From contig NZ_DATFAO010000091.1 in the NCBI RefSeq assembly GCF_035254505.1, forward strand, positions 2,538 through 42,537: a stretch of DNA of 40,000 nt, given 5' to 3'. The stretch's first letter is position 1. Each line of letters starts with the position of its first letter. Source of the DNA: Aromatoleum sp. GTDB lineage: Bacteria > Pseudomonadota > Gammaproteobacteria > Burkholderiales > Rhodocyclaceae. The notes beneath the pieces were generated by a model. That model saw only the letters and a list, made by a program, of their open reading frames with translations, searched no databases and was not told where the DNA came from. Made by a program: the position numbers and the translations under genes. Shown piece after piece: positions 2,515 to 20,078 of this stretch.

Positions 2515-3050
2515 CGCGTCGCGGAAGGCGGCTTGGACGAGCGCCTCGTAGTCGGCCACTGCGACGTCGCGGCGCGCCTCGGCGAGCTCCAGGTTGGCTC
2601 GGTTGCGGCCGCCGTCGAAGAGCGGCAGACGCAGGGCCGGGGTGAAGCTCCAGCTAGCGCTGCCGCCGCGGAAGAGGCCGTCAAGCTCGGCACTGGCGGT
2701 ACCGGCAAAGCCGGTCAGGGTGATGTTGGGGAAGAAAGCGGCGCGGGCGGCACGGACGCTGGCGCGGCTGGCGGCGAGGCGTTGCTCGGCCGCGCGGATG
2801 TCCGGGCGACGGGTCAGGAGTTCGGCCGGCAGGCCGGGCTGCAGTTCGCGTTCCAGACCCTGGTCGGTGAGGGGAGCGGGCGGTGGGTGCTGTCCGGCCG
2901 TATAGCCGGTGAGCTGGGCAAGCAAGGCCTCGTTCTGCGCCGCCTGGCGCCGCAGCGCCGCGAGCTCGACGCGCGTGCCGACGAGGAGGGTTTCCACCTG
3001 GCGCAGCTCCATATCTCTACCAGGTTCCCCGTCAGTCCGTGCGCCGCCAC
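2515..3050 (-). pseudogene. NodT/OprM-family efflux outer-membrane factor, internal fragment
   Basis: ELRQVETLLVGTRVELAALRRQ...LPAELLTRRPDIRAAEQRLAASRASVRAARAAFFPNITLTGFAGTASAELDGLF..SWSFTPALRLPLFDGGRNRANLELAEARRDVAVADYEALVQAAFRD aligns with the second half of OprM-type OMFs. It lacks the lipobox/N-terminus and the last roughly 70 aa. The upstream boundary is uncertain. Confidence 0.7.
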
Positions 3051-3189
3051 CGATGGGATGCGGCTCGAGTCGGACCACGTGTGCGAGCCCAGGTTAAAGG
3101 TGGCGGGGGCGATGACATGGCGCACTGCGCCGATGTGACGCTAGTTCACTTGCGTTGCGCCCCGGGAGGTGCCGGCGGCCGGGGAAGGT

Positions 3190-3735
3190 TCAGCGCGCGC
3201 GGGGGATCTGCGCGAGGTAGTCGTTCTTCAGGCGGACGTAGTGCTCGGCCGAGTAGCGCAGGAAGACGCGCTCCTCCGGAGTGAGCGGGCGGACCGGCAC
3301 GGCCGGCCGGCCGACGTAGAGGTGGCCGCTTTCGAGGCGCTTTCCGGGCGACACCAGGCTGCCGGCGCCGAGGATGACTTCGGGGCCGATCACGGCGTCG
3401 TCCATGACGATCGCGCCCATGCCTATCAGACAGGCGTCGCCGATCGTGCAGCCGTGCAGGATCACCGAATGGCCGATCGTGACGTGGCTGCCGATGACGA
3501 GTGGCGAGCCGTCCGGCTTGGCCGCGTTTCGGTGCGACACGTGGCACATGGTGAGGTCCTGCACGTTGCTGCAGGCGCCGACGATGATGCTGTTGACGTC
3601 GCCGCGCAGTACCGTGTTGCACCAGATCGAGACGTCGCGACCCAGGCGCACGTCGCCGATCACCTGGGCGGAGTCGTGGATGAAGACACCCTCGGCGAGC
3701 GTGGGCGTGATGCCACGAAGGGAATCGATGGACAT
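3190..3735 (-). CDS. Gamma-class carbonic anhydrase-like / hexapeptide-repeat (YrdA/PaaY/CaiE family) protein
   Basis: MSIDSLRGITPTLAEGVFIHDSAQVIGDVRLG... shows left-handed beta-helix hexapeptide periodicity and family His residues (MCHVSH, IGHSVILHGC). Start chosen at ATG 3735 with GAGGAAG 5 nt upstream; the 262-aa ORF-track version is an Arg-rich extension. Confidence 0.85.
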   Translation of the reverse strand: MSIDSLRGITPTLAEGVFIHDSAQVIGDVRLGRDVSIWCNTVLRGDVNSIIVGACSNVQDLTMCHVSHRNAAKPDGSPLVIGSHVTIGHSVILHGCTIGDACLIGMGAIVMDDAVIGPEVILGAGSLVSPGKRLESGHLYVGRPAVPVRPLTPEERVFLRYSAEHYVRLKNDYLAQIPRAR

Positions 3736-3806
3736 GTTCTTCCTCCGATGCGATCTAAATCGTGCCGGGACTCGCCGCTCGGCCGACCGGCGCGCGCAGG
3801 ATCCGC

Positions 3807-4352
3807 TCAGCGCTTGATTGCGGCGAGCGGGTCGTCCGGCTTGTAGGTCGGCGTAACCGGTCTCGGCGAACCCAGCATGACACACATCAGCGCCTCCTCG
3901 TCGCCGACGTTCTGTTCGCCGCGATAGACGCCGGGCGGTACCGAGATCAAGTCGCGCTCGCCGACCACCGCCTCCCACCTCTCCCCCTCGGGCGACTCGC
4001 AGAACACCTTCACCTTGCCGCGCAGCACGAAGAAGATCTCCTCGGTGTCCGTGTGCAGGTGTAGCGGGCCCGTGTGGCCGACCGGGATCTTCATCGTCGA
4101 AAAGGTGAAATGCACGGCCGGTACGACGTTGCCATCGGAATGCACGCCGGTGCCGCCGGTGCCGACGTAGCGCATCTGCGCGCGCGCATAGGTGGGATCG
4201 ACCTCGGTCTGGAACTTCAGCGCGTTCCAGTCGTAGCTGCGCGTCGAGCGCAGCACGCAGCGGGAATTCATCCAGTCCTCGAATGACGCGCCGTTCGGAC
4301 GCTGCAGGGTCCGGCTGGCTTCTTCGGTCAGGTTGGCGATGTGGTCGTTCAT
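3807..4352 (-). CDS. Cupin-domain protein
   Basis: Cupin motif GHTGPLHLHTDTEEIFFVLRG ... PPGVYRGEQNVG. Start at ATG 4352, preceded by GAGGAGGA. Confidence 0.75.
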   Translation of the reverse strand: MNDHIANLTEEASRTLQRPNGASFEDWMNSRCVLRSTRSYDWNALKFQTEVDPTYARAQMRYVGTGGTGVHSDGNVVPAVHFTFSTMKIPVGHTGPLHLHTDTEEIFFVLRGKVKVFCESPEGERWEAVVGERDLISVPPGVYRGEQNVGDEEALMCVMLGSPRPVTPTYKPDDPLAAIKR

Positions 4353-4493
4353 GCTTCCTCCTCGGGTTTGGCTTCGTCTTGCGCTCGTTCTTTTCGACCT
4401 CGCCACGCGCCCGTCGGGGGCGCTCCGGTCTCGGTGTCGAAAAGGAAAAATCGGCGGTGCCGCGAACGTGGTGCGGGCGTCAGTACGCCAGAT

Positions 4494-4777
4494 GTTCCAC
4501 TGGTGAAACAACAGGTTACCTACGGAACAACGCAACCCTAGTTCCGTCGCGCAGGGCGTGGCAATTGCGGAAACTACGAATTGACAAACGCAGGAACTTT
4601 AGTCTTCGAGCTTCGCCCTTGGGTCGAAGGTGATGCGCCCTTCTTGCGGTGGAGTGCCTGCAGCTTATCCGCGCTTGCCCATCAGTACGACGCAAATAAA
4701 TAGTCAATCAGGGATAACCCTAATTGATTGCACTAGTGCGACGCGAGTAGCGTTCGAGTCGTTCCAAGCAAGGAACG
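4494..4777. promoter_or_regulatory. Cluster of palindromes in the 502-bp divergent control region; candidate operator sites
   Basis: GTTCCAC-tg-GTGAAAC (4494-4509); CGGAAC-N12-GTTCCG (4523-4546); CAATcAGGGataaCCCTaATTG (4705-4726); CGTTCC-aagcaa-GGAACG (4760-4777). All were read directly from the sequence. The binding protein is unknown. Confidence 0.3.
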
Positions 4778-4854
4778 TTGTTTCATAGGTAAAACAAACC
4801 GGCAGCAACATGCCGGCACAGACGACAAGAACACGCACACCGCGAGAGGAGAAC

Positions 4855-5718
4855 ATGTTCATCAAGCATAAGTACGCCGCGACCGCCCTGCTCGCAGGGC
4901 TCGGCGCGACGGCGTCGATTCCCGCCCCTGCCGCCACCTGGTCCGACGCGATGGTCGGCTACCGCGTCGGCAACGACTTCCACGACCCCGGCATCGACGA
5001 CGACGTCCGCAAGAACATCGTCCAGTTCAGCTACGTCGGCGGCTACAGCTATGGGCAGAACTACTTCAACCTCGACGTCCTGAACTCCGACAGCGCCGAT
5101 CCGGCCAATGGTAGCCGAAACGGCGCGACCGAGTTCTATGCCGCGTACCGCCACCAGCTGCATCTCGGCAAGCTACGCGACGCGCCGATCGCGTTCGGTC
5201 CGGTGAAGGACGTCGCGATCACCGCGGGCCTCGACCTGCAGACCAAGAACAACACTTTCGCGCCGCGCAAGCGCATGTTCGTCGTGGGCCCGACGCTGAA
5301 GTTCGACGTGCCCGGCTTCCTCGACGTGAGCCTGCTGTACGCGCAGGAATGGAACCACTGCGGCCTGCCGGCGTGCCGCAGCGTGCCCGGCTTCAGTACC
5401 GACATCAAGTTTGATCCCTATCCGCGCCTCGAGGTTGCGTGGGGCATCCCCTTCGAGCTCGCCAGGTTGCCTTTGAAATACCAAGGGTTCCTGGCCTACA
5501 ACGGCAGGAAGGGCAAGGATTATTTCAAGAAGGAAACCGGCAGGGAAATGCTGTTCCGCTCGGCCCTGATGCTCGATGTCGGGCAGCTCGCGTTCGGCAA
5601 GAAGAACACCTTCCTGATGGGCGTGGGCTACGAGTTGTGGCGCAACAAGTTCGGCAACCGCGACATCCCCGGCGTGGACACCGACACCGCAACGCTCAAC
5701 GCGGAGTTCCACTTCTGA
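4855..5718 (+). CDS. Outer-membrane beta-barrel channel (Tsx-like / nucleoside-specific-channel-like family)
   Basis: Signal peptide MFIKHKYAATALLAGLGATASIPAPAA, alternating amphipathic strands, aromatic girdle residues, C-terminal ...LNAEFHF. GAGGAG lies upstream of ATG 4855. Family assignment is by resemblance only. Confidence 0.7.
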   Translation: MFIKHKYAATALLAGLGATASIPAPAATWSDAMVGYRVGNDFHDPGIDDDVRKNIVQFSYVGGYSYGQNYFNLDVLNSDSADPANGSRNGATEFYAAYRHQLHLGKLRDAPIAFGPVKDVAITAGLDLQTKNNTFAPRKRMFVVGPTLKFDVPGFLDVSLLYAQEWNHCGLPACRSVPGFSTDIKFDPYPRLEVAWGIPFELARLPLKYQGFLAYNGRKGKDYFKKETGREMLFRSALMLDVGQLAFGKKNTFLMGVGYELWRNKFGNRDIPGVDTDTATLNAEFHF

Positions 5719-5840
5719 TTCCCGGCTCTCCCCCGTCCGCGCAGCTGCAGCAGCGATGGCGGCCGGGCGAGCCCCTTGTACCGGACCACCGCGCAGCCGA
5801 GCTGCACCCACCGTCTCGTTGCAGTGTTTGAGGAAAAGTC

Positions 5841-6710
5841 GTGATCGAGATCGAATCCCGCAACACCCGCCGCCTGTCCTCCCCGCAGGGGGAGGCCGGC
5901 CGCCCCAGTACCGGCGAGGATCTGGACGTCCAGATCGAGTTCCGCAACGTCAGCAAGCGCTTCCCGACGAAGCGCGAACCGAATCCGCCCTACGCCGTCA
6001 AGGATCTGAACATCCGCATCCGCGCCGGCGAAGTGGTCTCCATCGTCGGCCCCAGCGGTTGCGGCAAGAGCACGCTGCTGAACATGGGCGCCGGGCTCTA
6101 CCTGCCCAGCGAGGGCGAGGTGCATGTCGCGCAGCAGCGCGTGACTCGGCCGGTAAAGCAGATTTCCTTCATGCTGCAGAAGGACCTGCTGATGCCCTGG
6201 CGCACGATCCGCCAGAACGTCGAACTGGGGCTGGAGATCGACGGCGTCGCGCGCGAGCGGCGCCGCGCGGTGGCGCTTGAGCTGATCGCCAAGTGTCACC
6301 TCGTCGGTTTCGAGAACCACTACCCGTACCAGCTCTCGGGCGGCATGCGCCAGCGCGCCGCGCTCGCCCGCACGCTGGCGACCGATCCGCAGGTGCTGCT
6401 GCTCGACGAGCCGTTCTCGGCGCTCGACGCGCAGACCAAGATGGTGCTGCAGCAGGATCTTGCGCAGATGCTGTATGACGCGAAGAAGACCGCGCTCTTC
6501 ATCACCCACGACCTGGTCGAGGCGATCGCGCTGTCCGACCGCCTGCTGGTGATGAGCCACCGGCCGGGCACGATCATCGAGGAGATCACCGTGCCGCTGC
6601 CACATCGCAACAACCCGCTCGAGCGCCGCAAGCTCCCCGAGGTCGGTCCGCTCGTGAGCCGCCTGATGGAGCTGCTGCGGGTCGGCCAGGACGGCCTGGA
6701 AGGACACTGA
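5841..6710 (+). CDS. ABC transporter ATP-binding protein (NitT/TauT family)
   Basis: Walker A GPSGCGKST, Q-loop, signature LSGGMRQR, Walker B LLLDEPFSALD, H-loop. GTG start with GAGGAA upstream. Confidence 0.9.
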   Translation: MIEIESRNTRRLSSPQGEAGRPSTGEDLDVQIEFRNVSKRFPTKREPNPPYAVKDLNIRIRAGEVVSIVGPSGCGKSTLLNMGAGLYLPSEGEVHVAQQRVTRPVKQISFMLQKDLLMPWRTIRQNVELGLEIDGVARERRRAVALELIAKCHLVGFENHYPYQLSGGMRQRAALARTLATDPQVLLLDEPFSALDAQTKMVLQQDLAQMLYDAKKTALFITHDLVEAIALSDRLLVMSHRPGTIIEEITVPLPHRNNPLERRKLPEVGPLVSRLMELLRVGQDGLEGH

Positions 6711-6765
6711 GCGCGCACCGGGCGCGCCGCCTACAAAACATAAAGACACCCCACAGGAGACGAAC

Positions 6766-7758
6766 ATGAGATCCACCCTGCGCAAACTCGCCGGCTCCGC
6801 GCTCGCGGCCGCGAGCCTCACCACGACCCTGCCCGCGGCGGCGGTCGCCAAGGAGAACGTCACTTATCTGCTGCCCGCGCCCCCCACGCTGCCCGCGTTC
6901 GCGCCGTGGATCGTCGCGAAGCAGAACGGCTATTACGACGCCGCGGGCCTCAACGTGACCTTCGTCGCCGCGCGCGGCGGCGTCGACGTCGCCAAGCAGA
7001 TCGGTTCGGGCAACGCGATCGTCGGCGGCGCGATCGGCGACACGCCCATCATCGTGCGTGCCAACGGCGTCCCGGTCCGGGCCGTGGCAGTGCTGGGCGG
7101 CGGTTCGCTGACGATGATCGCGGCGACCAAGGCCTCGGGCGTGAACAACGTCAAGGATCTCGCCGGCAAGACGATGACCGTGATGTCTTACGCCGACACG
7201 ACCTATTACGCGCTGCTCGGCTCGCTGAAGCTCGCCGGTCTCGACAAGCAGAAGGTCGCGGTGCAGGCGTCGGGGCCGGCCGGCGTGTGGCAGATGCTCG
7301 CCGGCGGCCAGGTCGCGGCGATGGCGGGGGTACCGGACTGGGTGGTCAGTGCGCAGGAGGCGGGCGGCGACATCCACCTGCTGCCCGCCGAGCAGCAGTT
7401 CAAGAGCATGGGGCAGGCCATCCTCGCCTCCGATGAGGCGATCCGGAAGCAGCCCGAGCTTTTGCGCAAGCTGGTGCAGGCGACGCTGCACGGCATGAAG
7501 GACATCATGGACGACCCGGCGGCCGCCGCGAAGTCCTTCGCAGCCGCGGTTCCCGCCTACCAAGGCAAGGAGGCGACGCTCGTCGCGGTCTTCCGCCTTT
7601 ATGGCAAGCACGTCTATCCGGGCCAGGAGACGCTCGGGCTGATCGACGCGAAGCGTCTGAAGGAAGTGCAGGACTTCTATCTCGCCGAGGGCATCGTGCA
7701 GCGCGCGACCCCGGTCGAGGACCTCTACACCAACCAGTTCGTGAAAACGGGCCAGTGA
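6766..7758 (+). CDS. ABC transporter periplasmic substrate-binding protein (NMT1/THI5-like, SsuA/TauA-type)
   Basis: Signal peptide ...LPAAAVA/KE and NMT1-like fold signature (APWIVAKQNGYYDAAGLNVTFV...). AGGAGA RBS. Confidence 0.9.
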   Translation: MRSTLRKLAGSALAAASLTTTLPAAAVAKENVTYLLPAPPTLPAFAPWIVAKQNGYYDAAGLNVTFVAARGGVDVAKQIGSGNAIVGGAIGDTPIIVRANGVPVRAVAVLGGGSLTMIAATKASGVNNVKDLAGKTMTVMSYADTTYYALLGSLKLAGLDKQKVAVQASGPAGVWQMLAGGQVAAMAGVPDWVVSAQEAGGDIHLLPAEQQFKSMGQAILASDEAIRKQPELLRKLVQATLHGMKDIMDDPAAAAKSFAAAVPAYQGKEATLVAVFRLYGKHVYPGQETLGLIDAKRLKEVQDFYLAEGIVQRATPVEDLYTNQFVKTGQ

Positions 7759-7777
7759 TTCCGGGAAGCATAGCGCC

Positions 7778-8551
7778 ATGAACAATTCTTCCACGCTCTG
7801 GGGCAGCGCCGTGCTGCTCGCACTGACGCTTTCCCTGTGGCAATGGGCGCCCGGCTGGGTCGGCCTGCCCGAGTACATCTTCCCGACCCTCTCCAGCACG
7901 GTCGAGCAGGCGGGCCGGATGTGGTCGGAAAGCCAGCTCCTCCAACATTTCGGCGTCACCGCGCTGGAGGTCGTGCTCGGCTTCGTGCTGGGCTCGCTGC
8001 TGGGCATCGCGGTCGGCGTCGCGCTGGGCCTGTCACCGACTGCCGAGGCGATGCTCTCGCCCTACATCCTCGCGCTGCAGATCGCGCCGAAGGTCGCGTT
8101 CGCGCCGCTCTTCGTGATGTGGCTGGGCTACACGATGTACCCGAAGATCCTCGTCGCGATCCTGATCGTGTTCTTCCCGGTGATGGTCAACGTGCTGGCG
8201 GCGATCCGTACCGTCGATCCGGACATGGTGAACCTCGTGCGCACCCTCAACGCGACGCGCTGGCAAATCTTCACTCTGCTCGAGTTCCCGTCGGCGCTGC
8301 CGAACCTGTTCTCGGGCCTGCGCATCGCCTCGACGCTGGCGGTGATCGGCGTGACGGTCGGCGAGCTGGTCGGCGGCAACCTCGGTCTGGGCTTCCTGCT
8401 CGTCGCCTCCGAAGGGCAGGGCGACACCGCGGGGGTGTTCGTCGCGATCACCGGGCTGACCATCATCGGCATTGTCGCCTACGCGGCGGTGATCCTGATC
8501 GAGAAGAAGGTGTTGCACTACATGCCCAAGGCAAGCCGGACCACGGTGTGA
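7778..8551 (+). CDS. ABC transporter permease (NitT/TauT family)
   Basis: Six predicted TM segments and an EAA-like loop (LNATRWQIFTLLEFPSALPNLFSGLRIA). Confidence 0.9.
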   Translation: MNNSSTLWGSAVLLALTLSLWQWAPGWVGLPEYIFPTLSSTVEQAGRMWSESQLLQHFGVTALEVVLGFVLGSLLGIAVGVALGLSPTAEAMLSPYILALQIAPKVAFAPLFVMWLGYTMYPKILVAILIVFFPVMVNVLAAIRTVDPDMVNLVRTLNATRWQIFTLLEFPSALPNLFSGLRIASTLAVIGVTVGELVGGNLGLGFLLVASEGQGDTAGVFVAITGLTIIGIVAYAAVILIEKKVLHYMPKASRTTV

Positions 8552-8553
8552 GG

Positions 8554-9318
8554 ATGGATGCGATGAATGGATTGCTAACAGGAAAGCGGGTGCTCGTCAC
8601 CGGCGGCGCACGCGGACTGGGGCTCGCTTTTGCCGAGCGCATCGCACGCGAGGGCGGCACGGTGGTGATCGCCGACCTGCGCGACGAGCTCGCCGCGGCC
8701 GAAGCCGCACGCCTCGCGGCCGAAGGGCTGGCGGTGCATGCACTGTCGCTCGATCTCGCGGATCCGGAGTCGATCCGCAGCTGTGCGCGGCAGGCGTGCG
8801 AGGTGCTTGGTGGCCTCGACGGCCTGGTGAACAACGGCGCGGTGACCGACTCGGGCGGCGTGCCGGCCGAGGAGCTCGAGGTCGCGACCTGGGACCGCGT
8901 GATGAACGTGAACGTGCGCGGCACCTGGCTGATGACGATCGCGTGCGCTGCGGCGCTGCGCGCCTCCGGCCGCGGGGCGGTGGTGAACCTCGCTTCCGAC
9001 ACCGCGCTGTGGGGCGCGCCGCGTCTGCTGGCCTACGTCGCGAGCAAGGGAGCGATCGTCGCGATGACGCGCAGCCTCGCCCGCGAGCTCGGCGACGGCA
9101 GCGTCACCGTCAACGCGATCGCGCCGGGGCTCACGCTGGTCGAGGCGACCGAGTACGTGCCCGAGGCACGTCACCGCCTCTATATCGAGCAGCGCGCGCT
9201 GCAGCGCGAGCAGGTGCCCGAGGACGTGTGCGGCGCGGTGCTCTTCTGCTTGTCCGATCTCGCGCGCTTCACGACCGGCCAGCTGCTCGCCGTGAATGGC
9301 GGCTTCGTGATGAACTGA
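8554..9318 (+). CDS. Classical short-chain dehydrogenase/reductase
   Basis: TGGARGLG cofactor motif, NNGA, catalytic S...YVASK with 13-residue Ser-Tyr spacing. The start is 2 nt after the permease stop; ATG 8563 is an alternative. Confidence 0.9.
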   Translation: MDAMNGLLTGKRVLVTGGARGLGLAFAERIAREGGTVVIADLRDELAAAEAARLAAEGLAVHALSLDLADPESIRSCARQACEVLGGLDGLVNNGAVTDSGGVPAEELEVATWDRVMNVNVRGTWLMTIACAAALRASGRGAVVNLASDTALWGAPRLLAYVASKGAIVAMTRSLARELGDGSVTVNAIAPGLTLVEATEYVPEARHRLYIEQRALQREQVPEDVCGAVLFCLSDLARFTTGQLLAVNGGFVMN

Positions 9319-9333
9319 GGCGGGGCGACGGAC

Positions 9334-10191
9334 ATGAGAACGCATGAAGAACGCCTCGCTGCCCTCGGCACGCATTTCCCGCTCGTCGAAGCGGGCGAGG
9401 GCGGGCGGCGCTGGACTTACCGGACGACCGGCCGCGGCGGGCGCACGCTGGTGCTCCTGCACGGCATCGGCTCGAGCTCCGCGTCGTGGCTCGATGTCGC
9501 GCTGGCGGCGGGCCGGGACTTCCGCGTCGTCGCGTGGGACGCGCCCGGCTACGGCGGCTCGACCCCGCTTGCGGCGGAGCGCCCGCTCGCGACCGACTAC
9601 GCGCAGTCGCTCGAAGGCTTCCTCGCGACGCTCGGCATCGAGCGCTGTGTGCTGGTCGGACACTCGCTCGGAGCGCTGATGGCGACCGCCTACGCCGCGG
9701 CCTACCCGCGGGGACGCGCGGCGCAGCTCATCCTGGTGTCGCCGGCGCGCGGCTACGGTGCGCGCGAGTTCGACGCCGAGCGCGAGCGCGTGCGTGCCTC
9801 CCGCCTGCAGGCGCTGGCCGCGCTGGGCGTGACCGGCATGGCCGCGGAGCGCGCGGGGCGGCTCGTGTCGCCGTCGGCGGGCGCGCCGGTGCGTGAATGG
9901 GTGCGCTGGAACATGGCGAGCCTGAATGCCGACGGCTATCGCCAGGCAACCGAGCTGCTGTGCGGCGACGATCTCGCCCGCTACGCTCCCGCGCCTCTGC
10001 CGGTCGCCTGCTTCTGCGGCGCCGACGACGTCGTGACGCCGCCGGCGGCCTGCGAGGCGGTCGCCGCCGCGTACGGCGTGCCACTGGTTCTGTTACCGGG
10101 CTGCGGCCACGCAAGCCCGGTCGAGATTCCCCACCTCCTCGCGGCGACGCTGCGGGAGTCCATCGAAATGCAAGGAGAGCGCTGTGAGTGA
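9334..10191 (+). CDS. Alpha/beta-fold hydrolase
   Basis: HGIGSSSASW oxyanion region, nucleophile elbow GHSLGA, C-terminal GCGHASPVE His. Confidence 0.85.
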   Translation: MRTHEERLAALGTHFPLVEAGEGGRRWTYRTTGRGGRTLVLLHGIGSSSASWLDVALAAGRDFRVVAWDAPGYGGSTPLAAERPLATDYAQSLEGFLATLGIERCVLVGHSLGALMATAYAAAYPRGRAAQLILVSPARGYGAREFDAERERVRASRLQALAALGVTGMAAERAGRLVSPSAGAPVREWVRWNMASLNADGYRQATELLCGDDLARYAPAPLPVACFCGADDVVTPPAACEAVAAAYGVPLVLLPGCGHASPVEIPHLLAATLRESIEMQGERCE

Positions 10192-11011
10192 CGACAATTC
10201 CCTCGACAACCCGGGCAGCAAGTACTCGGTGCCTGCGCTGGAGCGCGGCCTGCGCCTGCTCGGCGAGTTCAGCCGCCACGATCCGGTGCTGTCGGCGCCC
10301 GAGCTCGCGCGCCGGCTGGACCTGCCGCGCTCGACCGTGTTCCGCATGCTGTCGACGCTGGAGGACCTGGGCTTCGTCGAGCGCGCCGAGGGCGGGCGCG
10401 ATTTCCGCCTCGGCATCGCGGTGCTGCGGCTGGGCTTCGAATACCTCTCGTCGCTCGAGCTGACCGAGCTTGGCATGCCGATCCTCGGCCGGCTGCGCGA
10501 CGTGATCGGCTACGCCAGCAACCTCGTCGTGCGCGACGGCCGTTCCATCGTGTATGTCGCGAAGGTCACGCCGGCCTCGTGGATCGCGTCCTCGGTCACC
10601 GTGGGCACGCGCCTGCCGGCGCATGCGACGGTCTTCGGCCGCATCCTGCTGGCGGAGCTGTCGCTCGACGAGCTGCGCGCGCTCTATCCGGAGGAGCATC
10701 TCGAGCGCCACAGCGGGCAGACCCCCGCGACGGCGATGGATCTGTTCAACCTGCTGCAACTCGACAAGGGTCGCGACTGCGTCGTCGGCGAAGGCTTCTT
10801 CGAGCCCAGCATCTCGACCGTCGCGGCACCGGTGCGCGACCGCGAAGGGCAGGTAATTGCCGCGCTCGGCGCGACGGTGCCCTTCGGCCAGATCGAGGAG
10901 GGGCTGCGCGAGAGCCTGGTTACCCACATCCGCGCCGCGGCGCTGGAGCTGTCGTCCGCGCTCGGCTATTCGCAGCGCCGCGCCCGCACGGGCAAGATCA
11001 TTTCGCTGTGA
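10184..11011 (+). CDS. IclR-family transcriptional regulator
   Basis: N-terminal wHTH (VPALERGLRLLGEFSRHDPVLSAPELARRLDLPRSTVFRMLSTLEDLGFVE) plus an IclR effector domain. GTG start with GGAGAG upstream; overlaps the hydrolase stop by 8 nt. Confidence 0.9.
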   Translation: MSDDNSLDNPGSKYSVPALERGLRLLGEFSRHDPVLSAPELARRLDLPRSTVFRMLSTLEDLGFVERAEGGRDFRLGIAVLRLGFEYLSSLELTELGMPILGRLRDVIGYASNLVVRDGRSIVYVAKVTPASWIASSVTVGTRLPAHATVFGRILLAELSLDELRALYPEEHLERHSGQTPATAMDLFNLLQLDKGRDCVVGEGFFEPSISTVAAPVRDREGQVIAALGATVPFGQIEEGLRESLVTHIRAAALELSSALGYSQRRARTGKIISL

Positions 11012-11021
11012 CGGGGGAGCG

Positions 11022-13500: not shown

Positions 13501-14321
13501 GCGGGCCGGCCAACGTGAAGCGCGTGACCATGATCGGCTTCGGCGCGATCGGCGCCGGCGTGCTGGAGCTCGTGCGCGGCAACCCCGAGATCGCGATCGA
13601 CGCCGTCGTCGTCCCGGACCCCGCGGACGCGGCGCTGCGCGAGGCGCTGCGCCGTGCCGCCCCGGGTGCGAGGCTCGCCGCTGCGGTCGAGCTCGAGGCC
13701 GGCCGTCCGGACCTCATCGTCGAGTGCGCCGGACATTCGGCGATCGGGCAACACGTGATCCCGGCGCTCGAGCGCGGCGTACCCTGCCTCGTGATCTCGG
13801 TCGGCGCGCTGTCCGAGGACGGGCTCGCCGAGCGGCTGGAGGAGGCGGCACGCCGCGGCGGCACGCAGGCGCAGCTCCTGCCCGGCGCGATCGGCGCGAT
13901 CGACGCGCTCGCCGCGGCGCGCCTCGGCGGCCTCGAAGAGGTGCGCTACGTCGGACGCAAGCCGCCGCAGGCCTGGAAAGGCACGCCGGCCGAGGCCGAG
14001 CTCGACCTCGACATGGTCGTCGAGCCGGTGCGCATCTTCGTCGGCACCGCCCGCGAGGCCGCGCACCGCTTTCCGAAGAACGCCAACGTCGCCGCCACCG
14101 TCGCGCTCGCCGGGCTGGGCCTGGACGCGACCCGTGTCGAGCTGTGGGCCGACCCCCGCGTCGAGGAGAACCAGCACCACATCGACGCGCAGGGCGCCTT
14201 CGGCCGCCTCGAGCTGACGATGAGCGGCAAGCCGCTGCGCGCCAATCCCAAGACCTCCGCGCTGACGGTGTTCTGCGTCGCGCGGGCGCTGACCAACAGC
14301 GCGCACGCGATCACGATCTAG
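13497..14321 (+). CDS. Aspartate dehydrogenase (NadX)-family NAD(P)-dependent dehydrogenase
   Basis: N-terminal Rossmann motif VTMIGFGAIGAGV and a C-terminal AspDH-type domain (FPKNANVAATVALAGLG...HHIDAQGAFGRLELTMSGKPLRANPKTSALT). ATGA start/stop overlap with the ThDP gene. Confidence 0.85.
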   Translation: MSGPANVKRVTMIGFGAIGAGVLELVRGNPEIAIDAVVVPDPADAALREALRRAAPGARLAAAVELEAGRPDLIVECAGHSAIGQHVIPALERGVPCLVISVGALSEDGLAERLEEAARRGGTQAQLLPGAIGAIDALAAARLGGLEEVRYVGRKPPQAWKGTPAEAELDLDMVVEPVRIFVGTAREAAHRFPKNANVAATVALAGLGLDATRVELWADPRVEENQHHIDAQGAFGRLELTMSGKPLRANPKTSALTVFCVARALTNSAHAITI

Positions 14322-14329
14322 GAAACGCC

Positions 14330-15832
14330 ATGTACGACCCCGACCAGATTCAATCCATCTGCATTGCCGGCGAATGGCGCCGGGGCGGCGGCGACGTCTA
14401 CGCCTCGCTCTACCCGGCGAGCGGTGAAGTCGTCGCGCGCCTCAACGCGGCGAACCTTGCCGACGTCGAGGAGGCCATCGCCGGCGCGCACCGCGCCTTC
14501 GAGACGAGTGGCTGGGCGCAGAAGAAGCCGCACGAGCGCGCGCTGGTGCTGTATCGCGTCGCCGAGCTGATCCGTGCCCGCGGCGAGGAGCTCGCGCAGA
14601 AACAGCGCCTCGACAACGGCAAGCCGATCCTCGAGACGCGCGCGCTGGTCGCGAGCGCGGCGGGCACCTTCCAGTTCTTCGCCGCGGCCTGCGAAACGCT
14701 CGAAGAGGCGATCACGCCGGCGCGGGGCGACTACCTGTCGATGAGCGTGTACGAGCCCATGGGCGTGGTCGCCGCGATCACGCCGTGGAACTCGCCGATC
14801 GCGAGCGAGGCGCAGAAGATGGCGCCGGCGCTCGCGGCGGGCAACGCGGTCGTCGTCAAGCCTGCCGAGGTCACGCCGCTGCTGGCGCTCGAGCTCGCGC
14901 GCATCTGCGAGGAGGCGGGCGTGCCGCGCGGCATGATCAGCGTGCTGCCGGGCAAGGGCTCGGTGATCGGCGACGCGATCACCCGTCACCCGCTGGTGCG
15001 CCGCGTGTCCTTCACCGGCGGCACGACGACGGGCCGCCACATCGCGCACATCGCGGCCGACAAGTGCATGCCGGTGTCGCTCGAACTCGGCGGCAAATCG
15101 CCGACCATCGTGTTCGACGACGCCGACCTAGATCACGCGGTCAATGGGGTGCTCTACGGCATCTTCAGTTCGTCGGGCGAGTCCTGCATCGCCGGCTCAC
15201 GCCTCTTCGTCGCACGCGCCCTTTACGAGGACTTCGTCGCGCGCCTTGTCGCTGGTGCGGAGGCACTGACGGTCGGCGACCCGGCGAGTGAGCGCACGCA
15301 GATGGGGCCGCTGATCACCGCGCAGCACCGCGAATCGGTCGAGCGCTACGTCGCGCTCGGCCGCGAGGAGGGCGGGCGCGTGCGCTGCGGCGGCGCGCGG
15401 CCGCAGGGCGCACATCTGGAGCGGGGCAACTACTACCTGCCCACGATCCTCGACGGGCTCGACAACCGCAAGCGCCTCTGCCGCGAGGAAATCTTCGGGC
15501 CGGTGCTGGTCGCGCTGCCCTTTGACGACGAGGCCGATCTCGTCGCGCAGGCCAACGACAGCGTCTATGCGCTTGCCGCGGGCATCTGGACGCGCGACTA
15601 CCAGCGCGCCTGGCGTGTCGCCCGCGCCGTGCAGGCGGGCACCGTGTGGATCAACACCTACAAGCAGTTCTCCGCCTCGACGCCCTTCGGCGGCTGGCGG
15701 GACAGCGGCCTCGGCCGTGAGAAGGGGCGCCTGGGGATCCTGCAGTACATGGAGCAGAAGGGCGTCTACTGGGGCATGAACGAGACCCCGCTGGCCTGGG
15801 CCGCGCCGCGGACCGACTTGGCGGGCGTCTGA
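14330..15832 (+). CDS. NAD(P)-dependent aldehyde dehydrogenase
   Basis: ITPWNSP, catalytic Glu in LELGGKSP, catalytic Cys in SGESCIAGSR, EEIFGPV. Confidence 0.92.
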   Translation: MYDPDQIQSICIAGEWRRGGGDVYASLYPASGEVVARLNAANLADVEEAIAGAHRAFETSGWAQKKPHERALVLYRVAELIRARGEELAQKQRLDNGKPILETRALVASAAGTFQFFAAACETLEEAITPARGDYLSMSVYEPMGVVAAITPWNSPIASEAQKMAPALAAGNAVVVKPAEVTPLLALELARICEEAGVPRGMISVLPGKGSVIGDAITRHPLVRRVSFTGGTTTGRHIAHIAADKCMPVSLELGGKSPTIVFDDADLDHAVNGVLYGIFSSSGESCIAGSRLFVARALYEDFVARLVAGAEALTVGDPASERTQMGPLITAQHRESVERYVALGREEGGRVRCGGARPQGAHLERGNYYLPTILDGLDNRKRLCREEIFGPVLVALPFDDEADLVAQANDSVYALAAGIWTRDYQRAWRVARAVQAGTVWINTYKQFSASTPFGGWRDSGLGREKGRLGILQYMEQKGVYWGMNETPLAWAAPRTDLAGV

Positions 15833-15898
15833 GCAATCGTCACGGGGCGCGACAGGCGCCCCGGAAGAAATACAGAGAGAATGAGAGGAGACAGCATC

Positions 15899-16873
15899 AT
15901 GGCGGTACTGGGCATCGACGAGATCACCTATCGCGCCGAGGATCTCGCGACCTGCGGGAAGTTCTTTGCCGACTGGGGCCTGCGGCTTGTCGCCGAGCGC
16001 GACGACGAGCTCGTGTTCCACACGCTGAACGACTGTGTCGTGCGCGTCGCCCACCCATCGCGCGCCGGCGTGCCGGCCGGCATCGAGGACGGCCCGACCC
16101 TGGTCGAGGTCGTGTGGGGCGTCGACAGCGAGGCCAATCTCGCGACCTATGCCGAGGGCCTGCGCGATGCGCCCGGCTACTCGGTCGCGGACGGACGGGT
16201 GCGCTGCATCGACCCCAACGGCATCGCACTCGGCCTGCAGGTGAGCCGCAAGCGCGCGGTCGAGGTCGAAGGCGCCGAGTTCAACACCTGGAACCGGCGC
16301 CCGCGCGTGAACCGGTCCGCGCCAATCTACGAGCGCGCGGTGCCGATCGAGGTCGGCCACGTCGTGTTCTTCGCCGCGCATCGCGAGAAGGCGGTGCGCT
16401 TCTACACGGAGAAGCTCGGTTTCGCGCTGTCGGACCAGTACCCGGGGCGCGGCAGCTTCCTGCGCTGTGCGCCCCATGGCGGCCATCACGACCTGTTCCT
16501 GCTGCAGCTGCCGAGCGGCAAGAACGGCCTCAACCACGTCGCCTTCACGGTGCGCGACATCCACGAGGTGATCGGCGGCGGGATGGCGATGGACCGCTGC
16601 GGCTGGCGCACCCAGCTCGGCCCGGGTCGCCACCCGGTGTCCTCGGCCTACTTCTGGTACTTCGAGAACCCCGCCGGGGGGCTCGTCGAGTACTACGCCG
16701 ACGAGGATGAGCTCACCGGCGAATGGGTGCCGCGCGACTTCGAGCCCGGCCCGACGGTGTTCGCGGAATGGGCGGTCGAAGGCGGTATCGACGGGTTCAG
16801 TCGCCGGCCGCACGGGGCGGACGCGCCACGCTCGGGCTTTCTCACGGACCGCAGCGGCGAGACCGACCGCTGA
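15899..16873 (+). CDS. Two-domain VOC-family protein, extradiol ring-cleavage dioxygenase-like
   Basis: Putative metal ligands GHVVFF, LNHVAFT and LVEYY, plus HHDLF and a YFWY region as in type I extradiol dioxygenases. GAGAGGAG RBS before ATG 15899. Confidence 0.85.
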   Translation: MAVLGIDEITYRAEDLATCGKFFADWGLRLVAERDDELVFHTLNDCVVRVAHPSRAGVPAGIEDGPTLVEVVWGVDSEANLATYAEGLRDAPGYSVADGRVRCIDPNGIALGLQVSRKRAVEVEGAEFNTWNRRPRVNRSAPIYERAVPIEVGHVVFFAAHREKAVRFYTEKLGFALSDQYPGRGSFLRCAPHGGHHDLFLLQLPSGKNGLNHVAFTVRDIHEVIGGGMAMDRCGWRTQLGPGRHPVSSAYFWYFENPAGGLVEYYADEDELTGEWVPRDFEPGPTVFAEWAVEGGIDGFSRRPHGADAPRSGFLTDRSGETDR

Positions 16874-16950
16874 GGGGCCGACAAACCTTTATTTCACGCC
16901 ATCGCCGCGGCATGCACCCGCAGCGAGTCAATCACGAGGAGACATCACAT

Positions 16951-17181
16951 ATGTGTATCGCAAACCGGCCGCTCTATCTCGAGCCGCACCAGGCCCGCAG
17001 CGCGGCGCCGACCCCCTTCGAGGACCTGCTGGGCGACGCGATCGAGCGCGCCTACGCTCAGGGCATCCACGAGCTGGAGTCCTTGGTCGCCTATCTGAAC
17101 CAGTCCGGCCCCAGCGCGCCGAACGGCTCGCAGTGGACGACCGAGCTGTTCTGCGCCGAGATGGCCCGCCTCGGCGCCTGA
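16951..17181 (+). CDS. 76-aa conserved hypothetical protein (recombinase-like HTH-type small protein)
   Basis: ACGAGGAG RBS and host-like codon usage; lies between the VOC and Rieske genes. From memory, homologues are annotated recombinase-like helix-turn-helix domain proteins. Function unknown. Confidence 0.6.
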   Translation: MCIANRPLYLEPHQARSAAPTPFEDLLGDAIERAYAQGIHELESLVAYLNQSGPSAPNGSQWTTELFCAEMARLGA

Positions 17182-17216
17182 GCGCCGCGACTCGATAACG
17201 AATCGGAGATACCAAA

Positions 17217-18245
17217 GTGAGCACCAAGGAAATCGACCCCATCGACGAATACCTCGCGGACGGCCTGAAGGACCGCTGGTACGCGATCTGCCCGTCCAGC
17301 TTCGTCACCGACCGCGCCATCAGCCTGCGCCGCCTCGGCCTCAAGCTCGCCCTGTGGCGCGATCCCGCGAGCGGAACGATCCACTGCCTCGAGGACCACT
17401 GCCCGCACCGCGGCGCGCCGCTGTCGGTCGGCGTCGTGCTGGGCGACCGCATCGCCTGCGCCTACCACGGCGTCGAAGTGCGCTGCGACGGCGTCGTCAC
17501 GCGCGTGCCCGGCAGCCCGGGATGCAAGCTCGAAGGCTCGCGCACGACACGCTCGTACCACGTGCAGGACGCCGCCGGCATGATCTTCCTGTACAACGCC
17601 GCGAGCCCCGTCGAGGTGCCGCCGCCGCTGGAGCTGCCCGAGTACCTCGCCTCGCCCGAGTGGAGCAGCTTCCACTCCTACATGGAGTGGAAGAGCGACT
17701 ACCGCTACGTCGCCGACAACGTCATGGACCCGATGCACGGCGCCTACCTGCACCGCCAGTCGCACTCGATGTCTGAAGGCGACATCTCGGCCGACTTCGT
17801 GATCCGCGACACCGACCACGGTTTCTTCTTCGAGAAGAAGGGCCAGCGCAACGTGAACTTCGACTGGACCGAGCTCCACGACGACGGCAAGCTCATGTAC
17901 CACCGCCTCGAGATCCCCTACCCGAAGACTGGCGGCCCCGGCGGCAACTTCACCATCATCGGCATGTACGTTCCGATCACGCGCGACACCTGCGGCGTCG
18001 TGTTCTGGCGCTGCCGCAAGCTGGGTGGCTGGCAGCGCGACGTGTGGCGCTTCCTGTACAAGAACCGCCTTGAGGCGCGGCACTGGGAAGTCGTCGAACA
18101 GGACCGCACGACGCTCGAGCTGATGGAGCCCGATGCGTGCGAGCGCGAGTTCCTCTACCAGCACGACATGGGTCTCGTGCGCCAGCGGCGCTACATGCGC
18201 AGCATCGCGGCAGAGCAGATCGAGGCCGCCCAGTCGGCCCGCTGA
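17217..18245 (+). CDS. Rieske non-heme iron oxygenase, alpha-only (phthalate/VanA-type, class IA)
   Basis: Rieske CPHRGAPLS...CAYHG; mononuclear iron motif DPMHGAYLH. GTG start with GGAGA upstream. Confidence 0.9.
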   Translation: MSTKEIDPIDEYLADGLKDRWYAICPSSFVTDRAISLRRLGLKLALWRDPASGTIHCLEDHCPHRGAPLSVGVVLGDRIACAYHGVEVRCDGVVTRVPGSPGCKLEGSRTTRSYHVQDAAGMIFLYNAASPVEVPPPLELPEYLASPEWSSFHSYMEWKSDYRYVADNVMDPMHGAYLHRQSHSMSEGDISADFVIRDTDHGFFFEKKGQRNVNFDWTELHDDGKLMYHRLEIPYPKTGGPGGNFTIIGMYVPITRDTCGVVFWRCRKLGGWQRDVWRFLYKNRLEARHWEVVEQDRTTLELMEPDACEREFLYQHDMGLVRQRRYMRSIAAEQIEAAQSAR

Positions 18246-18296
18246 GCGGGTCGCCCACACGACGGGCCGTCCGCATACCGGACGGCCCGCGAGCCG

Positions 18297-19268
18297 ATGG
18301 ATATCGAGATGACTACAGACGAAACCGTGACGATGCGCGTCGAGGCCATGCGCTACGAGGCCGAGGGCATATTGAGCATCGAACTGGCCGCCCCCGACGG
18401 CGCCGAACTGCCCGTGGTGGCTGCGGGCGCGCACGTCGACCTCTTCCTCCCCAACGGAATCGCGCGCAGCTACTCGCTGGTCGTGCCGCGATCCTCGCCG
18501 CGCGCCTACGTCGTCGGCGTGCTGCTCGACCGCTCGAGCCGCGGCGGATCGCGCTACATCCACGAGCAGCTGCGCGTCGGCCAGGAGATCCCGGTGTCGC
18601 GCCCGCGCAACCATTTCGTCCTCGACGAGGATGCGGGCGACACCGTGCTGCTCGCGGGCGGCATCGGCATCACGCCGATCTACAGCATGTACGCGCGCCT
18701 CGTCGCGCTGGGGCGGCCGGTGCGCCTGCTCTATAGCGTGCGCTCGCGCCGCCAGGCCGCGTTCGCGCGCGACATCGAGCGGCTCGGCGGCGCAACCGAC
18801 TGGCACATCGACGACGAGGCGGGCGGCCCGCCGGACCTCAAGGCCTACCTTGCAAGGTTCGACGTCAAGGCGCATTTCTACTGCTGCGGGCCGACACCGA
18901 TGATCGACCGCTTCGAGGCGGTGTGCGAGGAGCTCGGCTATCCCAACGTGCATGTCGAACGCTTCGCCGCGCGCACCGACCAGGCGCCCGCCGAAGCCGG
19001 TGGCGCCTACGAGCTCGTGCTCCAGCGCAGCCGCCGCAGCCTGCACGTCGCCGCGGGCGAGTCGCTCATCAGCGTGCTGCAGGCGAACCGTATCGAGGTG
19101 CCGTTCAACTGCCAGGAAGGGGTGTGTGGCTCGTGCGAGACGCGCATCATCGAAGGCGAGGCCGACCATCGCGACTCGGTGCTGAGCAAGGCCGAGCGGG
19201 CGGCCAACAAGAGCATGATGGTGTGCGTCTCGGGCTGCAAGGGCGCGCGCCTGGTGCTCGATCTCTGA
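18297..19268 (+). CDS. PDR/VanB-family oxidoreductase (FMN, NAD and plant-type 2Fe-2S)
   Basis: RSYSL flavin motif, GGIGITP NAD motif, C-terminal CQEGVCGSC...C ferredoxin. Confidence 0.9.
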   Translation: MDIEMTTDETVTMRVEAMRYEAEGILSIELAAPDGAELPVVAAGAHVDLFLPNGIARSYSLVVPRSSPRAYVVGVLLDRSSRGGSRYIHEQLRVGQEIPVSRPRNHFVLDEDAGDTVLLAGGIGITPIYSMYARLVALGRPVRLLYSVRSRRQAAFARDIERLGGATDWHIDDEAGGPPDLKAYLARFDVKAHFYCCGPTPMIDRFEAVCEELGYPNVHVERFAARTDQAPAEAGGAYELVLQRSRRSLHVAAGESLISVLQANRIEVPFNCQEGVCGSCETRIIEGEADHRDSVLSKAERAANKSMMVCVSGCKGARLVLDL

Positions 19269-19292
19269 GCGGCCGGCGGGCGGGAGAGGGCG

Positions 19293-20078
19293 ATGCAAAT
19301 CTGCGTCGCGCAGTCGTGGAGCGACCTGCAGGCGCTGCTCTTCGAGGGCGCGTGGAACGAGCGCATCCTTCGCTACCGCTCGCCCTGCGCTTTCCGCGGC
19401 CTGGACGATGCGGGCCATCGCCTTGCGACCAGCCTCGCCCGGCTGGGCGGCGACAGCGCGCGGCTCGAGCGCCATCTGATCCGCAACTTCATCAAGTACG
19501 CCCACCGCGACGTCGTCGAGCGCGACTCCCTGTGGCACTGGCTCTCGGTCGCGCAGCACCACGGCCTGCCGACGCGCCTCCTCGACTGGACGCACTCGCC
19601 ACTGGTCGCGATGCACTTCGCGACCGCCCGCGCCGAAGCGATGGAGTGTGACGGCGCGATCTGGTCCATCAACTACGAGCGCGCCCACCGCCTGCTGCCC
19701 GCCGTGGTGCGCGACGCGCTCGACCGCGAGGGGGCGAACGCCTTCACGACCGAGATGCTCGCGCACACCGTGACGACGCTGGACAGCCTCGAGGCCATGT
19801 CCGCGCAGTCCTTTCTGCTGTTCTTCGAGCCGCCGTCGATCGACGACCGCATCGCGAACCAATACGCGCTGTTCTCGGTGATGTCCTCGGCGGCGGCCGG
19901 CGTGGACGACTGGATCGCGCGGCACCCGGCGCTGTGCCGCAAGATCGTCGTGCCGGCGGCCCTCAAGTGGGAGATCCGCGACAAGCTCGATCAGTGCAAT
20001 ATCACCGAGCGGGTGCTGTTCCCCGGGCTGGACGGCCTGAGCCGCTGGCTGGCGCGTCAGTACCGTGCGCGTGCCTGA
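19293..20078 (+). CDS. FRG-domain protein
   Basis: AFRGLDD motif, SVAQHHGLPTRLLDWTHSPLVAMHFA, RIANQYALFSV, LFPGLDG. These are the hallmarks of the FRG domain (PF08867, function unknown). Confidence 0.8.
   Translation: MQICVAQSWSDLQALLFEGAWNERILRYRSPCAFRGLDDAGHRLATSLARLGGDSARLERHLIRNFIKYAHRDVVERDSLWHWLSVAQHHGLPTRLLDWTHSPLVAMHFATARAEAMECDGAIWSINYERAHRLLPAVVRDALDREGANAFTTEMLAHTVTTLDSLEAMSAQSFLLFFEPPSIDDRIANQYALFSVMSSAAAGVDDWIARHPALCRKIVVPAALKWEIRDKLDQCNITERVLFPGLDGLSRWLARQYRARA

Follow-up and report, generated by a model that had tools for sequence, protein, structure and literature searches.

What does the long catabolic gene array carried by Aromatoleum sp. on contig NZ_DATFAO010000091.1 (assembly GCF_035254505.1) degrade? 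The window analysed here is a stretch of 40,000 nucleotides (nt), positions 2,538 to 42,537 of the forward strand of that contig, and a sequence-only reading had described in it sixteen co-directional genes from 4855 to 20078 whose families were familiar but whose combination could be mapped to no characterised pathway and to no assignable substrate. We find that the system is a widespread, uncharacterised aromatic catabolic operon for which a concrete kynurenate hypothesis can be formulated. Judging from the enzyme types encoded, the cluster would be a catabolic operon under IclR control that acts on an N-heteroaromatic carboxylate, with kynurenate (4-hydroxyquinoline-2-carboxylate) as the likeliest candidate, a reading to which we assign a probability of roughly 0.45.

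The conserved core and its spread

All sixteen plus-strand open reading frames (ORFs) of the array are present, with the junctions described before (a 2-nt gap at 8551/8554, an 8-nt overlap at 10184-10191, an 11-nt overlap at 11815-11825, ATGA at 13497-13500 and an 8-nt gap at 14321/14330), and the motifs CPHRG..CAYHG, DPMHGAYLH and GHSLG were found in the translations. Every family named earlier was recovered with Pfam and NCBIfam; the start of one short-chain dehydrogenase/reductase (SDR) gene, SDR2, was corrected from 11019 to 11022, and two genes left unnamed proved to encode an HTH_62 protein (16951-17181) and an FRG-domain protein (19293-20078). On the plus strand no convincing intrinsic terminator lies within the array, the first one being at 20609-20633, and a scan for promoters found nothing.

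Relatives were collected by scanning one genome per species with an alignment of the thiamine diphosphate (ThDP) protein, which yielded at least 581 species genomes. The best 80 loci from these at least 581 genomes were examined, and membership was assessed by tblastn of 18 window proteins against a comparison set of 84 loci. Twelve proteins, which include an L-aspartate dehydrogenase (AspDH) and an aldehyde dehydrogenase (ALDH), form the core:

3807 to 4352, minus strand: cupin (Cupin_2), a core member that is displaced and divergent here
8554 to 9318, plus strand: SDR1, classical SDR (adh_short), proposed dihydrodiol dehydrogenase
9334 to 10191, plus strand: alpha/beta hydrolase (Abhydrolase matches), proposed to act once the ring is open, on an amide or a C-C bond
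10184 to 11011, plus strand: IclR-family regulator (HTH_IclR and IclR_C)
11022 to 11825, plus strand: SDR2, atypical SDR (NF005468, 447 bits against a cut-off of 266), proposed side-chain C=C reductase
11815 to 13500, plus strand: ThDP enzyme (three TPP domains; NF005470, 910 bits against 495), proposed 2-oxoacid decarboxylase
13497 to 14321, plus strand: AspDH, an iminoaspartate/oxaloacetate enzyme (NF009827, 404 bits against a cut-off of 226)
14330 to 15832, plus strand: ALDH (PF00171, 556 bits; 60-83% identity across loci)
15881 to 16873, plus strand: two-domain type I extradiol dioxygenase, VOC (PF00903, HpaD/C23O-like matches)
16951 to 17181, plus strand: HTH_62 small protein of 76 aa (PF20552, E 3e-32), always just 5' of the Rieske gene
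17217 to 18245, plus strand: alpha-only Rieske oxygenase of VanA_C type (PF00355 and PF19112)
18297 to 19268, plus strand: reductase of phthalate dioxygenase reductase (PDR)/VanB type with a C-terminal 2Fe-2S domain (Fer2 and NAD_binding_1)

All twelve occur in nearly every fully flanked locus, at 40-83% identity. The co-conservation that a gene-neighbourhood check was proposed to test is seen across the loci; the array does behave as a unit, but the unit comprises twelve genes and not sixteen. The commonest order is (transporter)-SDR1-cupin-hydrolase-IclR-SDR2-ThDP-AspDH-ALDH-VOC-(0-3 kb)-HTH_62-Rieske-(RidA)-reductase, from which the window departs in the cupin alone, relocated to a divergent position, and three alternative arrangements of the same set are found in Comamonas/Delftia, in Cupriavidus/Ralstonia and in Novosphingobium. 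RidA genes lie within the cluster in 15 loci, and genes for ene-reductases of the old yellow enzyme (OYE) family lie near it in five.

Both genes that had been described as divergent, for the cupin and for a gamma-carbonic anhydrase (gamma-CA)/PaaY-like protein, are indeed encoded divergently upstream of the array. The cupin belongs to the core, being present in about 76 of the 84 loci at 56-69% identity and normally placed between SDR1 and the hydrolase, but the gamma-CA/PaaY-like gene is no member and was found in none of the 84. The FRG gene, which begins 24 nt 3' of the reductase gene, was also rejected as a member, with weak matches in three loci only (34-40% identity; L008 20098-20760, L035 20202-20864 and L030 16912-17280, from Pseudoduganella, Massilia and a Burkholderiaceae metagenome-assembled genome), where the homologues lie a few kb downstream of the cluster.

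A megablast search of plasmids with the region recovered the same gene families on four replicons: a conjugative plasmid of Cupriavidus pauculus, a mobilizable plasmid of Caballeronia with integrase genes nearby, a megaplasmid of Ralstonia wenshanensis and a megaplasmid of Novosphingobium resinovorum in which the gene order is shuffled. The idea of a widespread, mobile gene set is therefore upheld by conjugative and mobilizable plasmids, by the island described below and by the chromosome of Pseudomonas aeruginosa. Whatever its substrate, the cluster is among the most widespread uncharacterised aromatic catabolic operons of Proteobacteria.

On the P. aeruginosa contig (locus L085, GCA_002156655.1) the order is permease-SDR-cupin-hydrolase-IclR-SDR-ThDP/AspDH-ALDH-VOC-105-aa protein-HTH_62-Rieske/RidA-reductase-406-aa protein, followed by the endonuclease III gene and rnf genes. 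The same families in the same order recur in the Pseudomonas loci L021, L026 and L079, and the window differs in the position of the cupin only. If nth is PA3495, as we take it to be, counting from it would make the ALDH PA3504, the AspDH PA3505 and the genes from VOC to reductase PA3503-PA3498. The earlier statement that the array mirrors the block PA3514-PA3504 of strain PAO1 was borne out, with the cupin added, but fell short, since the VOC, HTH_62, Rieske, RidA and reductase genes are there as well. Its further point, that PA3505 has been studied as an L-aspartate dehydrogenase, agrees with the literature, in which the PAO1 AspDH is reported as characterised. In L085 the ThDP and AspDH genes were called as one 811-aa product (4523-6958) and the Rieske and RidA genes as one 432-aa product (10001-11299); the window and the other Pseudomonas loci have them as separate genes that overlap, and the joined calls are due to a 1-nt assembly error or else to a true fusion.

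Several loci carry additional genes. In L079 (16119-16454) and 17 other loci, from Pseudomonas and some other hosts, a gene between VOC and HTH_62 encodes a conserved protein of about 105-111 aa that matches no Pfam family; the L085 copy is at 9441-9758, and the window lacks it. At the same place 23 loci, including Variovorax and Herbaspirillum, have a FAD_binding_3 monooxygenase (e.g., L049 16149-17318), which may carry out a further hydroxylation or let a related substrate enter the route from the side. A chemotaxis gene (4HB_MCP and HAMP) lies just 3' of the cluster in eight loci, for example in Herbaspirillum (L015 18868-19722), and this methyl-accepting chemotaxis protein could be a chemoreceptor for the cluster substrate. 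Locus L083, from an assembly labelled Gordonia sp. IEGM753, has DNA about 87% identical to loci of the Pseudomonas fluorescens group and a G+C content of 59%; that assembly is probably mislabelled or contaminated.

Kynurenate as the candidate substrate

The classical 'quinoline pathway', a branch of tryptophan degradation, is entered at kynurenate, and glutamate and alanine have been reported as its end products. On the KEGG tryptophan map the degradation of kynurenate begins with a double hydroxylation using NAD(P)H and O2, continues through a dihydrodiol dehydrogenase, an 8,8a-dioxygenase and a side-chain reduction, and reaches an oxidative decarboxylation that yields 5-(2'-carboxyethyl)-4,6-dihydroxypicolinate; the enzyme counts of the cluster would match these steps. 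Enzyme types for each described step are present and intact (Rieske with PDR, SDR1, VOC, SDR2, ThDP enzyme and ALDH), so that a specific candidate can be proposed where the sequence-only reading had offered none.

In the route that we propose, kynurenate would first be converted to the 7,8-dihydrodiol by the Rieske oxygenase and the PDR reductase, perhaps together with the HTH_62 protein, and SDR1 would oxidise this dihydrodiol to 7,8-dihydroxykynurenate. The VOC enzyme would then cut the 8,8a bond to give 5-(3-carboxy-3-oxopropenyl)-4,6-dihydroxypicolinate, whose side-chain double bond would be reduced by SDR2 or by the OYE enzymes encoded near five loci. Decarboxylation of the 2-oxoacid by the ThDP enzyme would yield an aldehyde, and the ALDH would convert it to 5-(2-carboxyethyl)-4,6-dihydroxypicolinate. 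At this point the cupin would oxygenolytically cut the beta-dicarbonyl-like C4-C5 bond of the pyridone, much as Dke1/quercetinase-type cupins do on their own substrates, and the alpha/beta hydrolase would split the resulting amide into 2-oxoglutarate and iminoaspartate/aminofumarate. Finally, AspDH would reduce iminoaspartate to L-aspartate, or RidA, where present, would hydrolyse it to oxaloacetate and ammonia. Uptake would be served by whichever transporter the host supplies. Read in this way, the kynurenate route would give every conserved enzyme a role.

The classical kynurenate papers (Taniuchi & Hayaishi 1963; Horibata et al. 1961) and 5-(2'-carboxyethyl)-4,6-dihydroxypicolinate as a named compound are both on record, and glutamate synthesis stands in the title of Horibata et al. 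1961. The N1-C2(COOH)-C3-C4(O) fragment of kynurenate is exactly the four-carbon unit of iminoaspartate. The proposed products, 2-oxoglutarate and iminoaspartate, would fit the glutamate synthesis of that title as well as the alanine mentioned above. Delftia and Comamonas, which we take to be classical quinoline-pathway taxa, carry the cluster (L059, L062, L063 and P0240).

The enzymes of the first three steps keep their catalytic residues across the loci. In the Rieske protein, which is 100% identical to an A. petrolei protein, C62/H64/C81/H84 and the iron-site residues H174/H179/D296, the ligands required of an alpha-only oxygenase of phthalate/VanAB type (class IA), are invariant in 81 sequences, and no beta subunit is encoded in any locus. 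Its nearest solved structures are distant (SxtT, DdmC, CarAa and KshA, at about 1e-19 to 1e-15), with phthalate dioxygenase and OxoO also among them. In Caballeronia the reductase is replaced by a ferredoxin and a FAD reductase. The metal ligands of the VOC protein, thought before to be intact, are so: H160/H219/E270 are invariant in 121 sequences, together with the second-sphere residues H202/H203 and Y260, and the nearest solved structure is a distant, uncharacterised Novosphingobium protein. SDR1 has an invariant S148/Y161/K165, and its gene overlaps the Rieske gene in the Cupriavidus, Ralstonia and Caballeronia loci. The HTH_62 gene is found in about 78 loci; a single-sequence model of the protein, a three-helix bundle with a pLDDT of 79, gave no Foldseek match with E < 1.

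In SDR2 the catalytic Tyr and Lys are replaced by Thr and Arg in 82 of 82 sequences; SDRs that reduce C=C bonds, such as dienoyl-CoA reductases, can have lost the catalytic Tyr, and the resemblance would support a role as side-chain reductase. The nearest named subfamily of the ThDP enzyme is 5-guanidino-2-oxopentanoate decarboxylase (2-ketoarginine decarboxylase), a 2-oxoacid decarboxylase paired with an ALDH, which would likewise favour the proposed decarboxylation and oxidation; its nearest solved structures, acetolactate synthases, are distant. The cupin has an invariant H98/H100/E104, and an equally invariant R144 takes the place of the usual fourth His. The quercetinase QueD is its best match in the PDB, though a weak one (E 1.8e-7 over 60 residues). 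The triad and a ring-cleaving dioxygenase as best match point to a ring-opening role, and we propose that the cupin is a metal-dependent dioxygenase that may open a dihydroxypyridine ring. The hydrolase retains S111/D232/H259 in all sequences, with HsaD and BphD as its best PDB matches. Sequence searches of the PDB returned no close characterised homologue for the Rieske, VOC, ThDP, cupin, hydrolase and channel proteins.

AspDH lies above its equivalog cut-off for EC 1.4.1.21, and its catalytic His (QHH) and NPKTS motif align with 2DC1 and 1H2H. It belongs to an experimentally verified L-aspartate dehydrogenase family, the enzymes of P. aeruginosa PAO1, Ralstonia eutropha JMP134 and Delftia sp. 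Cs1-4 being reported as characterised, and this membership would support the iminoaspartate step. The nadA/nadC neighbours of NAD biosynthesis are missing, and the setting is catabolic in 84 of 84 loci.

The same enzyme is central to the strongest alternative, in which a single pathway acts on a different N-containing aromatic acid, such as another quinoline, indole or aminoaromatic carboxylate, or follows a 2-aminomuconate-type route whose enamine is reduced by the AspDH-fold enzyme as human ASPDH does. Co-conservation and enzyme types alone do not fix the substrate. Human ASPDH is, according to a 2026 preprint, a 2-aminomuconate reductase, and the AspDH fold can therefore take other alpha-imino or enamine acids; bacterial members of the RidA family include 2-aminomuconate deaminases, and the 15 loci with RidA and the 23 with a FAD monooxygenase inside them lend such a route further plausibility. 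The bacterial enzyme, however, scores above the AspDH equivalog cut-off and keeps the catalytic His position of prokaryotes, the Delftia and Klebsiella AspDHs are reported to have very low activity on pyruvate and 2-oxoglutarate, and no alternative substrate was found that gives all nine enzymes a role. We regard this alternative as less probable than kynurenate, but as well ahead of the other readings.

A canonical monoaromatic route, in which VanA-like O- or N-demethylation or hydroxylation leads to a catechol and ordinary meta-cleavage, draws on the VanA_C domain, on DdmC as one of the nearest solved Rieske relatives and on a series of likenesses that all stay below the family cut-offs (VOC to HpaD and catechol 2,3-dioxygenase, hydrolase to BphD and HsaD, ALDH to HpaE and 2-hydroxymuconic semialdehyde dehydrogenase). 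Yet no 4-oxalocrotonate tautomerase or decarboxylase, 2-oxopent-4-enoate hydratase, aldolase or acylating dehydrogenase is encoded in the window or recurs in the 80 loci, and because this lower pathway is missing the cluster is not one of canonical meta-cleavage; moreover, the ThDP enzyme, AspDH, cupin and SDR2 would be left without roles. The route is improbable. The claim of a complete meta-cleavage gene set was for the same reason overstated, although the 2-His-1-Glu site of an extradiol dioxygenase that it implied is there.

Some observations weigh against kynurenate itself. The mapping is a chemical one, drawn from predicted enzyme types. Among the neighbours in the 80 loci no gene for tryptophan dioxygenase, formamidase or kynurenine aminotransferase recurs beside the cluster. 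A P. aeruginosa kynU mutant is reported to accumulate kynurenate to 100 uM in rich medium, so that P. aeruginosa is not fast at clearing it in such a medium. The best score of SDR1 is not to known cis-dihydrodiol dehydrogenases, the nearest solved Rieske relatives are mostly monooxygenases (SxtT, DdmC and KshA), and we know of no direct precedent on this substrate for the ring-opening steps given to the cupin and hydrolase. Our literature search found no functional assignment for the PA locus tags or for the enzyme combination, no gene-level work on kynurenate degradation and no experiments linking the cluster to activity on, growth on or induction by kynurenate; Breisch et al. 2022 reportedly deals with growth of A. 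baumannii on kynurenic acid. The names of thousands of Rieske and VOC homologues are generic, none assigning a substrate; to that extent the earlier view that the combination maps to no characterised pathway stands. That the cluster encodes the whole kynurenate pathway, with new enzymology, is a tentative proposition that we hold at somewhat under even odds.

Uptake, regulation and the genomic island

The head of the array is formed by four uptake genes, and two operator-like sites precede them:

4493 to 4510: operator-like palindrome TGTTCCACTGGTGAAACA of the family TGTTTC-N6-GAAACA, candidate IclR site
4779 to 4796: second operator-like palindrome TGTTTCATAGGTAAAACA, 59 nt upstream of the channel gene
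4855 to 5718, plus strand: outer-membrane channel of the Tsx/OmpK family, a lineage-specific accessory
5841 to 6710, plus strand: ATP-binding cassette (ABC) ATPase of NitT/TauT type, accessory uptake (PF00005 and NCBIfam)
6766 to 7758, plus strand: NMT1/SsuA-like periplasmic substrate-binding protein (SBP; PF09084), in the same loci as the ATPase
7778 to 8551, plus strand: ABC permease (PF00528)

The channel has no Pfam match of its own, but its homologues either contain PF03502 or bear the name OmpK/Tsx, and calling it an outer-membrane channel was therefore correct. None of the other 84 loci has it; a Porin_4 gene takes its place there. About 25 of the 84 carry the ABC importer, and elsewhere there are major facilitator superfamily (MFS) transporters, TctC-type binding proteins of tripartite tricarboxylate transporters (TTT) and Porin_4 porins. 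The NitT/TauT type had been offered as a hint to the substrate, but an importer present in only about a third of the loci says little on it; that ABC, TTT and MFS transporters and porins are interchangeable fits an organic anion.

This bears on a further alternative, an Ehrlich-type route for an aliphatic or sulfonated amino acid (for example from cysteate through sulfopyruvate and sulfoacetaldehyde to sulfoacetate) with AspDH, the ThDP enzyme and ALDH at its core. The trio of dehydrogenase, ThDP decarboxylase and ALDH would be chemically sensible for an aspartate analogue, and models of SsuA, TauC and SaoA type are the highest-scoring ones for the SBP, permease and ATPase, although no score reaches its cut-off. 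The importer, however, is found in only about a third of the loci and gives way to MFS or TTT systems elsewhere, and the Rieske oxygenase, reductase, VOC, cupin and hydrolase are conserved as tightly as the trio yet would have no role. A sulfonate or cysteate substrate deduced from the transporter was rejected since the transporter is not conserved, and we consider the route as a whole very improbable.

Upstream of operon heads, in regions that make up 5% of the sequence, the palindrome TGTTTC-N6-GAAACA, often perfect (TGTTTCATATATGAAACA), is enriched 17-fold, and 41 of 80 loci have it there; in its exact form the signal was weak, and the motif emerged with one mismatch allowed per half-site. 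In the window the cupin and channel genes have both copies between them, so that the two transcription units are tied to one regulon, and the IclR protein of the cluster is the obvious candidate to bind these sites. This protein scores 161.6 bits against TIGR02431, the model of the PcaR/PcaU/PobR subfamily, below the cut-off of 284.75, and so falls outside that subfamily. Two unrelated adjacent modules, a PA3504-PA3514-type block and an oxygenase/VOC/reductase block, might be suspected from the inserts of 1-3 kb between VOC and HTH_62/Rieske in many loci, but this is most improbable, as the halves co-occur in essentially all fully flanked loci, including the shuffled ones of Novosphingobium, Comamonas/Delftia and Cupriavidus, and the same palindrome stands upstream of different operon heads; chance adjacency was rejected in view of co-conservation through these rearrangements.

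In Aromatoleum the cluster sits on an island, as the sequence-only reading had held. Its boundaries and integrase remnant are:

726 to 801, plus strand: tRNA-His, second of two identical copies (ARAGORN; direct-repeat family D1), left island boundary attL
876 to 1499, minus strand: phage-type integrase fragment, central domain only (PF22022, E 5.8e-8)
24750 to 24795, plus strand: 46-nt identical copy of the tRNA-His 3' end (family D1), right island boundary attR

Of four tRNA genes at 349-801, the last two form the identical tRNA-His pair (573-648 and 726-801, spaced by 153 nt) directly to the left of the integrase fragment. Framed by a tRNA gene and by a repeat of that gene's 3' part, and with a G+C content of 0.68-0.73 from about 2 to 23 kb that falls past about 24 kb to about 0.60 in the glnD/map region on the right, the segment 802-24795 is a tRNA-integrated genomic island of about 24 kb. 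Its integrase is decayed to a 207-aa ORF that holds the central domain alone. At the left end (2239-3078 on the minus strand, and 1487-2304) part of an outer-membrane efflux (OEP) gene is fused with part of a Na+/H+ exchanger gene in one chimeric ORF, which together with the unassignable ORFs there looks like gene debris. Also within the island, an ORF at 20717-21463 (minus strand) has only a LysR helix-turn-helix (HTH) segment at residues 132-175 and is probably a fragment; it adjoins a GAF-GGDEF-EAL protein at 21491-23494 (minus strand).

Comparison with known systems

Kynurenate is a ligand of the host aryl hydrocarbon receptor (AhR) and of GPR35, and P. aeruginosa is reported to produce it during infection; a dedicated route for its consumption, in this pathogen and in abundant environmental bacteria, would therefore be of medical and ecological interest. 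If the proposal is true, P. aeruginosa and many soil and freshwater Betaproteobacteria would be able to consume this host immunomodulator. Aspartate dehydrogenase would gain a catabolic role as iminoaspartate reductase, and this would account for the place in a catabolic operon of mesophilic 'aspartate dehydrogenases', whose study has so far been confined to biocatalysis. In addition, a cupin would open a dihydroxypyridine ring, an SDR lacking its Tyr would act as an ene-reductase, and a small HTH_62 protein would be the obligatory partner of an alpha-only Rieske oxygenase. We found no genes assigned since the early 1960s to EC 1.14.99.2, 1.3.1.18 and 1.13.11.10 or to the later steps of the quinoline pathway; the cluster supplies named candidates for every step in tractable organisms, and PAO1 transposon mutants exist for the loci.

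The classical kynurenate pathway of the Hayaishi laboratory, to which these three EC numbers belong, matches the cluster in the number and type of its reactions. The literature that we found assigns it no genes, and its link to the cluster is a proposed one; to our knowledge its steps past the picolinate intermediate have never been defined. The P. aeruginosa block, PA3498-PA3514 by our count, shares families and order from permease to reductase; it differs in having a RidA gene and the unassigned 105-aa gene, in keeping the cupin within the operon and in lying on the core chromosome rather than on an island.

Among better known routes, the upper pathways for naphthalene, biphenyl and carbazole share a Rieske dioxygenase, an SDR dihydrodiol dehydrogenase, a type I extradiol dioxygenase and an alpha/beta hydrolase. 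The oxygenase of the cluster is, in contrast, alpha-only with a PDR-type reductase, there is no hydratase-aldolase, and the 2-oxoacid side chain would be handled by the ThDP decarboxylase and ALDH. That pairing recalls AruI/KauB of the arginine transaminase pathway, where an aldehyde dehydrogenase acts after a ThDP 2-oxoacid decarboxylase; AruI is the nearest named relative but acts on another substrate, and at 262 bits against a cut-off of 500 the cluster enzyme is not a member of its family. With ring opening in nicotinate (NicX/NicD), picolinate and pyridoxine degradation, and with the Dke1/quercetinase cupins, the cluster shares the logic of a dioxygenase followed by an alpha/beta hydrolase, which in the pyridine-ring pathways frees an amide or enamine fragment as we propose here, although NicX belongs to a dioxygenase family other than that of the cupin. 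Finally, the cluster AspDH shares its fold and catalytic His with NadX/AspDH of NAD biosynthesis and with human ASPDH. Human ASPDH likewise acts in late tryptophan catabolism, on an alpha-enamine acid. The cluster enzyme differs from NadX in its catabolic setting, with no nadA or nadC adjoining; the bacterial AspDH clade oxidises L-aspartate in vitro, and the human enzyme does not.

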